From Phycisphaerae bacterium (GTDB lineage Bacteria > Planctomycetota > Phycisphaerae > Sedimentisphaerales > UBA12454): 64,000 bases of DNA. A model generated the notes under the pieces. That model was not told the DNA's origin and did not search any database. It saw only the letters and a program-made list of their open reading frames with translations. The position numbers and the translations under genes are program-made. Shown piece after piece: positions 61,292 through 64,000 of the stretch (position 1 is the first letter of the stretch; every line of letters begins with the position of its first letter). The stretch is taken from NCBI GenBank assembly GCA_041652575.1, contig JBAZHC010000001.1, forward strand, positions 70,636-134,635, read 5' to 3'.

Positions 61292-61607
61292 TTTACAACT
61301 CCTGATAAATAATAAATTTAGAGCGGAAATTATATCAACATCTTAAAATTTCTCCACTTATTTTACGTTAATACGAAAACAATGGGGCAAAAAACAATCG
61401 TAAGTCCTTATTTTTCAAAAACAAATAAAGGAGTTATGAAAAAAAGTTCGTCAAAAACGCGCAAGTTTTTTTTATTTTCGCGCAAGTTGACTAAAAAAGG
61501 GCCACAGATTTCACTGATTTTGTACAGATTTTATATGAAAAAGTCAAAAAAGTGAGGAGTTTTTACAGGTTTTGGGCAGTTTTTGGGGTTTTTGGAACAT
61601 TTTTTTT

Positions 61608-61630
61608 AGCCACTAAGCCACTAAGACGAA
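61608..61630. repeat. Family A half-element (agccactaagccactaagacgaa)
   Basis: It has the same CCAC-TAAG periodic arm as in the pilus locus, followed by the family's usual aaaaaatatttaaaaa loop. The right arm is degenerate. Confidence 0.55.
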
Positions 61631-61651: not shown

Positions 61652-61679
61652 TTGACTAAATAAAAAAACACGATAAACT
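61652..61679 (+). promoter_or_regulatory. Candidate sigma70 promoter of the E2/E1/JAB operon (TTGACT, 16-nt spacer, TAAACT)
   Basis: TTGACT lies at 61652-61657 and TAAACT at 61674-61679, about 45 nt upstream of the first ATG. The aaggag RBS is at 61712-61717. Confidence 0.45.
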
Positions 61680-61701
61680 GCACAATCGTATTAATTGTAC
61701 A
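61679..61701. promoter_or_regulatory. Candidate operator: inverted repeat tgcacaat-N7-attgtaca
   Basis: The 8-bp arms are complementary at 7 of 8 positions. The repeat abuts the putative -10 box. Confidence 0.35.
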
Positions 61702-61723
61702 TATTTAACTTAAGGAGCAAGAT

Positions 61724-61939
61724 ATGGCCAAAAAACCGACAATTGAAGAATTGGAAGCTATTTTAGATAAGGAAGAAGAAACGCCAATCGAAATACTTCC
61801 GAATGGCGAAATCCGTGCAAAAGGCCAGACAAATTCAAGTGAATTGGCCGGAAAAAAACCACTAACAATGCGTGAAAATCTTGGCGGCGAATATTCTTTT
61901 AATAGGTTTAGATATGGACATTATACGTATTCAAAATGA
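61724..61939 (+). CDS. 71-aa protein with an internal Leu-Gly-Gly (residues 53-55); candidate modifier or substrate of the adjacent conjugation enzymes
   Basis: A strong RBS (aaggag) with 6-nt spacing, and first position in the operon. It has ...TMRENLGG followed by a 16-aa tail. It overlaps the next gene's ATG by 26 nt. Confidence 0.55.
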   Translation: MAKKPTIEELEAILDKEEETPIEILPNGEIRAKGQTNSSELAGKKPLTMRENLGGEYSFNRFRYGHYTYSK

Positions 61940-62291
61940 GTTCAAAGAAGCTCAGGAATATTTCTCATATATTGAGTTGCATCCAACATCTGATGGAAAG
62001 CTTTATGTAAAAAGCGCAATTCAATCTTCTTTTACTAATTATTATATTTTAAAAATTGTTTTTCCGGATAGTTACCCATATTCGATGCCAAGTGTTTATA
62101 TTGAAAAACCAGTGATAAATTCTTCGCCTCATCGTTATATGGAAGGAAATATTTGTTATTTACATCCGACTATGTGGAATCCGGGAATTCATAATCTTTC
62201 ATTTGTGCTTCAGCGTGCTGCTAAATGGTTAGCTAAATACGAGGTTTGGAAGAATAGCAATAAATGGCCGGGAGCACAAATTGTACATTAA
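61914..62291 (+). CDS. UBC/E2-like protein 1
   Basis: N-terminal helix RIQNEFKE, then FPDSYPYSMPSVYI, then HRYMEGNICYL...WNP. This parallels the E2 layout FP..YP...P, HPN-loop, catalytic Cys, W.P. Confidence 0.75.
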   Translation: MDIIRIQNEFKEAQEYFSYIELHPTSDGKLYVKSAIQSSFTNYYILKIVFPDSYPYSMPSVYIEKPVINSSPHRYMEGNICYLHPTMWNPGIHNLSFVLQRAAKWLAKYEVWKNSNKWPGAQIVH

Positions 62292-62302
62292 AGGAAATTT
62301 TT

Positions 62303-62824
62303 ATGCATTTAGATTTTAATACCTTATCTATGATGAAATTAAGAAGTTCTCCGGGGGAGGCTCTCGATAAAGTATCTAAAGAAGGCAAGGCCTTTATTAT
62401 CGAAAGAAATGGTCACCAAGAAGCCTGCCTGGTTCCTGTTTGGTATTTTTTGCCTGATATTCCAAAAGATAGAATTAGTAATGAGTTAGAAATATTACAC
62501 CAAAAAGGAGAAAAACCTTCATTAAGGTTTTCTGATAATCATGAATTGGAAATCTTGTTTAAAGAATGTTTAATGAATTATGAAATAACAATTAGAATTG
62601 TTCTTCCTCATGGATATCCAAACAACGTCCCGAAAATCTATGCTTCGCCTATTAGAAAAGATGCACCCCACTTATGGCATGATGGTGCTTTATGCATTTT
62701 TGGAATTATGGCTACTTGGAATCCTGGTAAACACAATATCGGTACTGTATTAGACCTAAGTCGAAAATGGCTTTCGAAATATAGCGAATGGGAAAAAAAT
62801 GAAATTTGGCCAGTTGAAGGTTGA
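62303..62824 (+). CDS. Phd/YefM-like N-terminal domain fused to UBC/E2-like domain 2
   Basis: The N-terminal LRSSPGEALDKVSKEGKAFIIERNGHQEACLVPVWYF is antitoxin-like. The C-terminal LPHGYPNNVPKIYA...HLWHDGALCIF...WNPGKHN is paralogous to E2-like 1. The aaaggaaa RBS precedes the ATG at 62303. Confidence 0.75.
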   Translation: MHLDFNTLSMMKLRSSPGEALDKVSKEGKAFIIERNGHQEACLVPVWYFLPDIPKDRISNELEILHQKGEKPSLRFSDNHELEILFKECLMNYEITIRIVLPHGYPNNVPKIYASPIRKDAPHLWHDGALCIFGIMATWNPGKHNIGTVLDLSRKWLSKYSEWEKNEIWPVEG

Positions 62825-62832
62825 AATAAAAA

Positions 62833-63678
62833 ATGAACGAAGAAAAAACATTTACACGAATAGAAAAATTATTTGATATTGGATTACTTAATAATAGCAG
62901 AATTCTTATTGTTGGGTGTGGTTCAGGTGGCGGTAATCTGGCTTTACAATTAGCTATGTCTGGTATCAAAAATTTTACACTAGTAGACAAGGATGTACTT
63001 GAGATAGAAAATGTCATTAGGCATGTTTGTGGAAGAAAATTTATAGGCAAAAGGAAAGTTGATGCACTTGAGGAAGTTTTATTAGACAGAAATCCTGAGA
63101 TTAAAATAAGGAAGTTCGACGTAGATATAATGAACTTTGACCTTCTTGAATCTGAAATAAAAGCTCATACTTTAGTCGTTTTGGCTACCGACAATGAACC
63201 TTCTCGCTATTTAATTAACGATATTTGTGTGCATAATAATATTCCATTTGTAGTTGGACGAGTATTTACTCGTGGTATTGGTGGAGAAGTTTTTATTTAT
63301 CGCCCCAAAATAGGCGGTTGTTTAGCATGTTTAGAAAGTTTTCTGGGAAGAACCAAATATCGTCAGGGGATAAGAGAAATAGATTTGGTATCGGAGAAAG
63401 AAAGGGAACAAATGTATGGCATGGAAATAGCTGAAATAAAAGATTCCCCTGGCCTTAATGTTGATATATCTTTTATTACGGCCTTTCATACAAGATTTGC
63501 ACTTGACGCAATTGCTGAGACATTAAAAGTACGTCCTAAATATATGCAAGCTATTCCTGATAATTATATTATATGGGGGAATAGGCCAACGCCTCCTTTT
63601 ACAAAACATTTTCAAATTCAACGCTTTAACCTGCCACCACAGGAAGGATGCCAAATATGTTCGCAAGAAAAAAAATAA
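62833..63678 (+). CDS. ThiF/MoeB-type E1-like adenylating enzyme
   Basis: Contains ILIVGCGSGGGNLA, LVDKD, NVIRH and LATDN, plus the paired CxxC motifs CLAC and CQIC. Confidence 0.85.
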   Translation: MNEEKTFTRIEKLFDIGLLNNSRILIVGCGSGGGNLALQLAMSGIKNFTLVDKDVLEIENVIRHVCGRKFIGKRKVDALEEVLLDRNPEIKIRKFDVDIMNFDLLESEIKAHTLVVLATDNEPSRYLINDICVHNNIPFVVGRVFTRGIGGEVFIYRPKIGGCLACLESFLGRTKYRQGIREIDLVSEKEREQMYGMEIAEIKDSPGLNVDISFITAFHTRFALDAIAETLKVRPKYMQAIPDNYIIWGNRPTPPFTKHFQIQRFNLPPQEGCQICSQEKK

Positions 63679-64000
63679 ATAAGATTCCAGTTCAAATTTG
63701 TATTTGCAAAGATGTATTAAATTCGATTTTCGACGAATGCGATAAAAATGATATTGATGAAACTGGTGGTCGTATAATTGGATATTATAATCAAAATAGA
63801 AATAAATTAAATATCAATGTTTGTGGTTTAATTGCTTCTGGTCCAAATGCAAAAAGTTCACCAACGAGTTTTTTTCAAGATGGGATTTACCAAGAAAGTA
63901 TCTTTAGAAAATTAGAAGAAGAATATCCTAACATTGAACATCTTGGAAATTGGCATACGCATCATGTAAATGGTTTGCAAACCTTAAGCGGAGGAGATAT
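63657..64000 (+). CDS. JAMM/JAB (MPN+) metalloprotease, 3' end outside the window
   Basis: Hand translation gives MFARKKINKIPVQICI...DETGGRIIGYY...HLGNWHTHHVNGLQTLSGGD, which carries the E...HxH...SxxD metal site. It overlaps the E1 stop by 22 nt. It is absent from the ORF track because it has no stop in the window. Confidence 0.8.
   Translation, partial: MFARKKINKIPVQICICKDVLNSIFDECDKNDIDETGGRIIGYYNQNRNKLNINVCGLIASGPNAKSSPTSFFQDGIYQESIFRKLEEEYPNIEHLGNWHTHHVNGLQTLSGGD

Follow-up and report, generated by a model that had tools for sequence, protein, structure and literature searches.

The closest described relatives of the locus considered here are 6A-MBL and type II CBASS (anti-phage signaling that is based on cyclic oligonucleotides). 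Family 6a of Iyer, Burroughs and Aravind (2006) is defined by the fusion of E2, E1 and JAB in one protein, encoded beside a metallo-beta-lactamase (MBL) fold protein (PMC1779556). Passages in more recent papers cite 6A-MBL as an anti-phage system (PMC11601596; PMC13276650; 10.1101/2025.09.30.679545), and two of these refer to its validation in P. aeruginosa (van den Berg 2024, via PMC11601596 and PMC13276650). In type II CBASS the substrate of E1 is a disordered, non-beta-grasp C-terminus (10.1101/2022.03.31.486616). The stretch of DNA analyzed here, 64,000 nucleotides from a Phycisphaerae bacterium and called the window below, ends in a six-gene cassette which, judged by sequence, is a split and distant relative of both anti-phage systems. 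Its distinguishing element is the product of its first gene, a dedicated non-beta-grasp mini-protein that carries an LGG-EY motif and has homologs in phages. This combination appears undescribed: a literature search returned no description of the small protein, of the LGGEY motif, or of the E1/E2/JAB/MBL/Phd gene combination. We infer, with a probability of roughly one half, that the small protein is a pro-tag which would be trimmed after Gly55 by the JAB protease, adenylated by E1 and conjugated by E2, and which would thereby gate the MBL nuclease.

The cassette genes occur in the order small protein, E2a, E2b, E1, JAB and MBL, as follows.

61724..61939, + strand: small-protein gene, cassette gene 1, candidate pro-tag of 71 amino acids (homology and synteny)
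61914..62291, + strand: E2a, putative catalytic E2 of the E2-CBASS type, 125 amino acids (weak Pfam UQ_con/Prok-E2_B; PADLOC E2 2e-12; PF26395 on record)
62303..62824, + strand: E2b, Phd/YefM-like N-domain followed by an E2 fold (Pfam, PADLOC)
62833..63678, + strand: E1, ThiF/MoeB-type adenylating enzyme, 281 amino acids (Pfam ThiF 7e-37; PADLOC E1-E2 2.8e-34)
63657..64000, + strand: N-terminal part of the JAB/JAMM metalloprotease, which continues past the window end (PADLOC JAB 1.4e-14)
L001:3060-3893, just outside the window: gene 6, MBL-fold ComEC-like hydrolase of 277 amino acids, resembling the ComEC/Rec2 nuclease domain

The Pfam and PADLOC matches agree with the original prediction, made from the letters of the window, that E2, E1 and JAB genes lie downstream of the small gene. 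The identical public contig L001 supplies the rest of the JAB protein, which comprises 314 amino acids including a C-terminal extension of about 170 residues without known fold. Further cassettes were sampled through E1 in an alignment-based metagenome scan, which avoids circularity with respect to the small protein; a scan of genome contigs with a single E1 sequence had given one locus. The metagenome scan yielded 80 E1 loci, of which 57 have at least 1250 nt upstream of E1 and can be scored for the small gene. The MBL gene follows directly 3′ of the JAB gene in all loci.

The residues expected for catalysis are conserved throughout, with E2b as the exception. E2a contains an H-x4-G-x2-C motif whose cysteine, Cys81 (nt 62154-62156), is present in 70/71 copies, and whose histidine is present in 71/71. 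The corresponding cysteine of E2b is kept in only 34/77 copies (Ser in 26, Ala in 13; homologs L002-L116) and the preceding histidine is variable as well. The E2b of the window has the cysteine. From its sequence, E2b often looks like an adaptor-like pseudo-E2 of the ubiquitin E2 variant (UEV) kind. E1 has two CxxC zinc motifs, and all seven of its cysteines, Arg63 and Asp120 are invariant in 86/86 copies; these cysteines include Cys66, which lies beside the arginine finger in the sequence NVIRHxCG, and Cys132. The active-site E, HxH, S and D of JAB are invariant in 69/69 copies and the metal ligands of the MBL protein in 60/60.

The cassette resembles 6A-MBL in its defense contexts and in having an MBL-fold hydrolase alongside E2, E1 and JAB activities. 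The NCBIfam models for 6A-MBL match the E1, JAB and MBL proteins at 1.5e-14, 1.1e-11 and 1.8e-10, with scores far under the equivalog cut-offs: NF058523 gives 53.5 bits for E1 and 44 bits for JAB against a cut-off of 320, and NF058524 gives 40.5 bits for MBL against 220. The MBL protein is closer to ComEC/Rec2 (91 bits) than to the 6A-MBL model. Canonical 6A-MBL consists of two genes, encoding a fused cap2_3 protein and the MBL protein, whereas E2a, E2b, E1 and JAB are separate proteins here. Two components are found only in the present cassette: a further E2, which has a Phd-like N-domain and often lacks the Cys, and the small protein with its 57-residue LGGEY unit. In 6A-MBL, the literature implies, conjugation involves the enzyme itself. 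In the cassette the C-termini of the MBL proteins are unconserved and lack glycine, and the MBL nuclease was rejected as the E1 substrate here. Canonical 6A-MBL loci were sought for a comparison of MBL C-termini, and the plasmid searches gave only CBASS, ComEC-like and other E1 contexts.

The relation to type II CBASS is seen in the homology of the E1, E2 and JAB families to Cap2 (E2-E1) and Cap3 (JAB); they are recognized by the PADLOC CBASS models. Compared with the E1 domain of Cap2 in bona fide type II CBASS operons, encoded on plasmids of Nostoc and P. aeruginosa, E1 shows 26-30% identity. None of the cassette loci examined encodes a CD-NTase, SAVED or other CBASS effector. In type II CBASS the substrate is the tail of the CD-NTase, and these tails end in the reactive residue (...SSSASA, ...SGRSA); in the cassette it would be a free-standing mini-protein whose diglycine is capped by an invariant Glu-Tyr. 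The enzymes differ too. Cap2 has a catalytic cysteine in its crossover loop, whereas no cysteine of the cassette E1 aligns with it and a 17-residue insertion is found there. The nearest solved relatives of E1 are MccB (2.4e-14), MoeB, SAE2 and ThiF, and MccB adenylates a peptide C-terminus.

The small gene itself is confirmed as real and as constrained far beyond chance. Its translation is exactly the one originally quoted for this open reading frame, and can be divided as follows.

61724..61849, + strand: folded N-terminal module, residues 1-42, with the hairpin EILPNGEIR (AlphaFold2 model and invariant residues)
61853..61894, + strand: conserved flexible tail motif KKPLTMRENLGGEY, residues 44-57, extended and of low predicted confidence, constrained at the amino-acid level
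61883..61888, + strand: codons of the invariant Gly54-Gly55, the putative site of JAB cleavage and E1 adenylation
61895..61936, + strand: unconserved 14-residue extension SFNRFRYGHYTYSK, with its last 8 codons within the E2 gene

The small protein has 715 homologs in a set of 5.8 billion proteins, and 606 clusters at 50% identity came from a profile search across 1.84 billion cluster representatives. One homolog is an NCBI entry from a Phycisphaerae metagenome-assembled genome and is identical to the protein of the window. The LGGEY motif is invariant in the 120/120 closest homologs, and GGEY is found in 60/60 small reading frames identified through E1. Together these sequences share the tail motif ...KPLTMRE[ND]LGGEY. 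The alignment shows two invariant blocks, EILPNGE.R and P-L-T..E.LGGEY, and the invariant residues of the N-terminal part are P5, I7, L10, L14, E17, I24-E29 and R31. The cassette copies form a tight clade with 65-88% identity. All 57 E1-anchored loci with sufficient upstream DNA have a small reading frame at the same position; thus neither a homologous operon lacking the gene nor a cassette copy lacking the diglycine was encountered. Synonymous codons vary freely at LGGEY, with all four Gly, both Glu, both Tyr and six Leu codons in use, so selection acts on the peptide and not on an overlapping nucleotide signal. A nucleotide-level cause of the conservation of GGEY, such as the ribosome-binding site of E2 or the gene overlap, was considered and is ruled out by this use of all synonymous codons. 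The suggestion that the small protein is an unrelated product with a chance LGG has in its favor only the prior expectation that short reading frames and LGG tripeptides are common. The hundreds of homologs, the invariant motif, the protein-level constraint and the strict synteny refute it, and its probability is practically nil.

The original prediction placed the diglycine correctly at nt 61883-61888 but counted 55 residues before it; the glycines are residues 54-55 and 53 residues precede them. It also had the 16 residues after the diglycine encoded entirely in the overlap with E2. The true start of E2a, by homology, is the ATG at 61914, and the overlap comprises only the last 8 post-GG codons and the stop. 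The further idea of a conserved diglycine followed by a disposable tail holds for the glycines, which are invariant, and for the residues past GGEY, which are not conserved, but fails for Glu56-Tyr57, which are as invariant as the glycines. The conserved unit, as seen in the alignments, is therefore ...KPLTMRE[ND]LGG-EY. What follows it consists of unrelated sequences of 0-15 residues. A stop codon directly after the tyrosine is present in 21/120 close homologs and in 27/60 E1-anchored copies, so a removable tail in the sense originally proposed would cover the variable part past Tyr57 and not everything after the glycines, and is altogether missing from many cassette copies. How long the tail is depends on where the stop codon lies with respect to the start and ribosome-binding site of E2a, and many tails read ..RR, ..GG or ..ERR, matching an in-frame AGGAG. 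Judged by its sequence pattern, the tail is largely a side effect of this placement of the stop near the E2 ribosome-binding site and start, and the 14 residues after Tyr57 in the window are almost certainly functionless. The mature end of the protein may be Gly55 or Tyr57. One cassette copy (L058:3891-4079) ends in ...KEDLGGEYLGGEY, a tandem duplication of the motif (LGGEYLGGEY). In another (L011:495-1055, P0149), on a short contig and without an intervening stop, the small protein and E2a form one in-frame fusion (...LGGEY-VP-MDLDRL...). This single occurrence may represent either a natural pre-protein, as BubAB is, or an error of sequencing. The variable tails and this fusion imply that most copies need trimming, or that the tail is irrelevant.

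The position of the glycines also allows a different reading, in which the small protein is the precursor of a ribosomally synthesized and post-translationally modified peptide (RiPP). E1 would then act like MccB or PaaA, the conserved region would be a leader of the double-glycine type and the residues after the glycines would form the core. The relationship of E1 to MccB, its nearest solved relative, is consistent with this, and LGG resembles the cleavage site of double-glycine leaders. The core would, however, be only Glu-Tyr in 27/60 copies and is otherwise unconserved, and the cassettes contain no transporter, immunity gene or C39 peptidase. Since two proteins with an E2 fold, a JAB protease and a nuclease in defense islands point to conjugation and immunity, a role in peptide biosynthesis is highly improbable.

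The fold of the small protein was predicted with AlphaFold2 from a 52-sequence alignment. In the model, residues 7-16 form a helix, 22-24/30-32 a beta-hairpin and 38-41 a short helix, and the C-terminus is extended. Its predicted local distance difference test score (pLDDT) is 70 overall, about 82 for residues 1-30, 74-85 over residues 1-40 and 42-57 in the tail. The picture is one of an acidic N-domain followed by a disordered C-terminal tail. Foldseek found no match of the model in the PDB at E<=0.001, and the protein has no match in Pfam, PADLOC, PHROGs or NCBIfam, nor in a profile hmmsearch against PDB sequences. The small protein is thus non-beta-grasp as far as the model and these searches indicate, which bears out the earlier remark that it looks too short for a classical beta-grasp. 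A beta-grasp modifier encoded just beyond the window was the other way in which that proposal could have failed; no such conserved neighbor exists, and the flanks differ between loci. We also considered that the N-domain might be a truncated Phd/YefM fold akin to the N-domain of E2b. This was rejected as unsupported (hhalign probability 0.4%, no Pfam hit at E<=1).

To our knowledge the dedicated modifiers of E1/E2 pathways (ubiquitin, ubiquitin-like proteins, SAMPs, BilA, BubA) are all beta-grasp proteins, the sole exception being the CBASS CD-NTase tail, which is part of an enzyme. The small protein does have a modifier-type C-terminus, with an invariant LGG followed by EY and 0-15 variable residues. 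In this respect the cassette is comparable to several known systems. The Bil and Bub operons likewise encode an E1, an E2, a peptidase and a modifier precursor that is cut to expose a glycine. Their precursors are trimmed by JAB, and BubAB is a pre-protein consisting of the ubiquitin-like modifier and E2 (PMC11601596), an arrangement paralleled by the in-frame fusion described above. Unlike the Bil and Bub modifiers, the small protein has a predicted structure of helix, hairpin and tail without a match to the beta-grasp fold.

The sulfur carrier QbsE, a beta-grasp protein of siderophore biosynthesis, ends in GG-CF and is trimmed by the JAMM protease QbsD before it is adenylated by a ThiF-type E1. 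The likeness lies in the conserved dipeptide that caps the diglycine and in the JAB/JAMM protease of the same operon that removes it; the QbsE system, unlike the cassette, has neither an E2 nor a nuclease. Pup and UBact are similar in being small and largely non-globular and in having a Gly-Gly-acidic motif at the C-terminus. The ligation of Pup uses a side-chain carboxylate and PafA/Dop enzymes of the glutamine-synthetase fold, encoded beside proteasome genes, whereas E1, E2 and JAB are present here. Tagging of the Pup/UBact type was rejected for the cassette: PafA/Dop and proteasome/Mpa genes are absent from all loci, and the motif is GGEY, often extended, and not a terminal GGQ or GGE.

In view of the above, a mechanism can be considered in which the small protein is made as an inactive pro-form, its diglycine being capped by Glu-Tyr and any read-through residues. 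The JAB protease of the operon would cut after Gly55, and the ThiF-type E1 would adenylate the exposed carboxylate. A conserved C-terminal glycine was sought in the other cassette proteins and none was found, which leaves the small protein as the sole candidate E1 substrate in the operon. The acyl group could then be passed to Cys81 of E2a, maybe directly, as E1 lacks the crossover-loop cysteine of Cap2; E2b would probably serve as an adaptor or recruiter. The tag would finally be ligated to a target, which could be the MBL nuclease, the tag itself or a phage protein, and this ligation would switch on or localize the nuclease. Look-alikes encoded by phages could jam the pathway. We favor this mechanism because it is the simplest account that uses every enzyme of the operon.

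Several observations weigh against it. The invariance of Glu56-Tyr57 is odd for a propeptide that is discarded; the dipeptide could be a binding epitope, or Tyr57 the functional end, and 45% of the cassette copies end exactly in ...GGEY. The absence from E1 of a cysteine of the Cap2 type makes a canonical E1 thioester step uncertain. The confidence of the structure prediction is moderate (pLDDT 70). Finally, as described next, the family occurs alone in phages that carry no E1, E2 or JAB, so the tail has some role that is independent of phage-encoded enzymes.

A scan of IMG/VR with the small-protein alignment identified 18 viral loci, and in none of these is an E2, E1, JAB or MBL gene found within about 8 kb of the small gene. 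The stand-alone phage homologs show 44-60% identity, with both conserved blocks and GGEY intact. In three loci (L015, L021, L024) the small gene lies between P22-like portal and scaffold/coat genes; in L025 it follows terminase and portal, and in L016 it lies after the major head protein and before the neck. These head and packaging modules belong to unrelated uncultured phages. An all-against-all BLAST showed no conserved partner gene beside the phage copies, and tblastn with cassette-type and phage-type queries found no homolog in 50,697 genomes of cultured phages. Contexts that are phage-like were likewise seen for the divergent representatives sampled from the profile search, and GGEY is kept in 137/149 divergent family members (P0121-P0269). 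Diversity in the family is much greater outside the cassette than among cassette copies. The tails that follow GGEY in the phage-type proteins start with Gly or Ala in 93/125 cases and end in Ala in 48/99 and in Ala-Ala in 30/99 (GGEYAA, GGEYAEAA, GGEYGVAA). Such alanine endings recall the C-terminal degrons of the ssrA type, and cassette copies have no such ending.

A viral homolog of a host modifier has a parallel in the v-ubi of baculoviruses, a late-expressed homolog of ubiquitin, the eukaryotic beta-grasp modifier. The parallel is an analogy only, in that the virus carries a homolog of the conjugatable modifier of its host.

The direction of descent may also have been the reverse. The small protein could be a captured phage protein that serves as bait: an activity dependent on phage infection would cut it at LGG|EY, which would license conjugation by E1/E2 and activation of the nuclease, and JAB would mainly be an off-switch, like Cap3. 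The greater diversity of the family outside the cassette (606 clusters, the sampled divergent ones phage-like), as compared with the tight cassette clade, is in agreement with such an origin, as is the location of phage copies in late and head modules. An invariant Glu-Tyr at P1'-P2' would fit a specific protease site. There are precedents in defense systems that sense phage protease activity via decoy loops (PMC12991175) and in MBL effectors unleashed by proteases (10.1101/2025.11.14.688446). Yet the P22-like modules, with portal, small gene, scaffold and coat, show no prohead protease, the phage copies have no conserved partner gene, and the operon already encodes an intact protease. We consider the bait mechanism distinctly unlikely.

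A second group of phage proteins carries the tail on a different N-terminal domain. In the gene at L029:7842-8060 a Phd/YefM N-domain (Pfam 3.4e-6) is fused directly to ...KPLTFREDLGGEYAQ. This N-domain is 41% identical to that of the cassette E2b (BLASTP 1e-9). The family of such Phd-tail proteins counts at least 154 members with the motif KPLT[FM]xxxLG[G/D]EY, and further examples are found at the following positions.

L121:6001-6225: Phd-tail gene
L123:6001-6222: Phd-tail gene

The Phd-tail genes are orphans in early regions and lie beside genes for helix-turn-helix regulators, orphan DNA methyltransferases, RusA and GcrA/GapR-like proteins. Among 115 members, Leu (111), the first Gly (112), Glu (111) and Tyr (107) of the motif are conserved, and the second Gly is replaced in 30, in 18 of these by Asp. 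Because the chimera joins homologs of the E2b N-domain and of the tail of the tag, the phage proteins would be aimed at this very system, and the E2b N-domain and the tail probably work together. The different fate of Gly55, which is invariant in the host and for which Asp is tolerated in the Phd-tail family of phages, is what would be expected if chemistry takes place at this residue in the host and the mimic only needs to bind. The phage families thus look like anti-defense mimics of the tag, comprising full-length homologs and Phd-domain chimeras, many of the latter with LGDEY. The complete picture, in which a non-beta-grasp tag of about 55 residues is capped by Glu-Tyr and countered by two families of phage mimics, often with a non-processable LGDEY, we hold to be somewhat short of an even chance.

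The chimeras also bring the small protein closer to the Phd/YefM antitoxins. These resemble the E2b N-domain and the L029-type phage proteins, and they combine an N-domain with a disordered, functional tail; the small protein has no detectable similarity to them, and a classical toxin of the Doc or YoeB kind is lacking. This leads to an explanation in which the small protein is never conjugated. It would be a pseudo-substrate or antitoxin-like inhibitor whose KPLTMRExLGGEY tail plugs a partner such as the adenylation site of E1, the groove of JAB or the MBL protein. The system would be silent until infection removes or degrades the small protein, and the phage homologs would be antitoxin mimics that keep the effector off. 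Its layout as a small first gene with an acidic N-domain and a disordered C-terminal tail is that of a Phd/YefM antitoxin, and in the phage proteins with a Phd/YefM N-domain, orphans of early regions, the same tail occupies the position at which an antitoxin binds its toxin. The invariance of Glu-Tyr, together with a second glycine that is dispensable in the Phd-tail family, suits an inhibitor, and the many copies ending in ...GGEY and the stand-alone phage copies would fit a binding epitope. The degron-like ..AA endings of phage-type tails (30/99) can be read in the same way, but cassette tails lack them. An inhibitor does not explain why 180/180 cassette copies keep both glycines and phage copies are relaxed here. 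It would also leave an intact E1, a catalytic E2 and JAB without a substrate, and the N-domain of the small protein shows no similarity to Phd/YefM (Pfam; hhalign 0.4%). Taken together, the inhibitor function appears doubtful, though it deserves serious consideration.

The original proposal of a mini-tag precursor without a beta-grasp fold therefore survives the comparison of operons and their diglycine and the search for a beta-grasp neighbor. It does not survive with the diglycine as the sole boundary of the conserved part, and the stand-alone phage copies open the way to reading the protein as an inhibitor or mimic.

The region upstream of the small gene contains the following signals.

61566-61587 and 61608-61623: tandem direct repeats, CAGGTTTTGGG/CAGTTTTTGGG and AGCCACTA x2
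61652..61679, + strand: promoter-like site TTGACT-16 nt-TAAACT, upstream of the operon
61679..61701, no strand assigned: operator-like imperfect palindrome TGCACAAT-N7-ATTGTACA, in the interval from the -10 hexamer to the Shine-Dalgarno sequence and overlapping the promoter
61712..61717, + strand: Shine-Dalgarno sequence AAGGAG, 6 nt upstream of the small open reading frame

A -35 hexamer of the CTTGACA type is found at the same place in most cassette loci for which upstream regions were listed. The half-site of the palindrome, TG[CT][AG]CAAT/ATTG[CT][AG]CA, occurs in 27/63 cassette upstream regions, compared to 1.3% of control windows, and mostly lies 30-60 nt 5′ of the start codon. The palindrome is also present upstream of the small gene in L005, L006, L007, L031, L032 and L037-L061. 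It suggests autoregulation or a repressor specific to the cassette, a part that the Phd/YefM-like domain of E2b could play, and autoregulation would be in line with an antitoxin-like inhibitor. Both tandem direct repeats lie in the AT-rich intergenic stretch 5′ of the operon promoter.

All contexts examined share the six-gene order; they come from Planctomycetes, Elusimicrobiota, metagenomes of soil and peat and, in Mesorhizobium, from a chromosome and the megaplasmid pMspAR10a. The flanks of the cassette are unrelated between loci and often resemble defense islands, with type I restriction-modification, BrxC/D, Hen1/PNKP and UvrD-like helicase genes. In an Elusimicrobiota metagenome-assembled genome and two Mesorhizobium strains, a gene for a patatin-like phospholipase directly follows the MBL gene (L007:11755-12879; L030/L031:8869-10050; L032:11669-12850). 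It may be an optional second effector. On the contig of the window the MBL gene is followed by genes for a PG_binding_1 protein and a DUF2207_C-like membrane protein.

If the pro-tag mechanism is correct, E1/E2 conjugation needs no ubiquitin fold, even for a dedicated stand-alone tag. A free-standing 55-residue tag of non-beta-grasp structure would redefine the minimal requirements for ubiquitin-like conjugation, and it would account for the substrate, a point so far missing from the logic of the 6A-MBL lineage. A licensing step may be built into the protein, as its invariant GG-EY cap suggests. The sharing of the tail by two phage families points to a previously unseen anti-defense strategy, mimicry of a modifier or pseudo-substrate, which would if true be a new axis of mimicry between host and virus. 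The cassette measures about 5 kb and is present in cultured Mesorhizobium strains, on the chromosome and on a megaplasmid, which makes these proposals directly testable.

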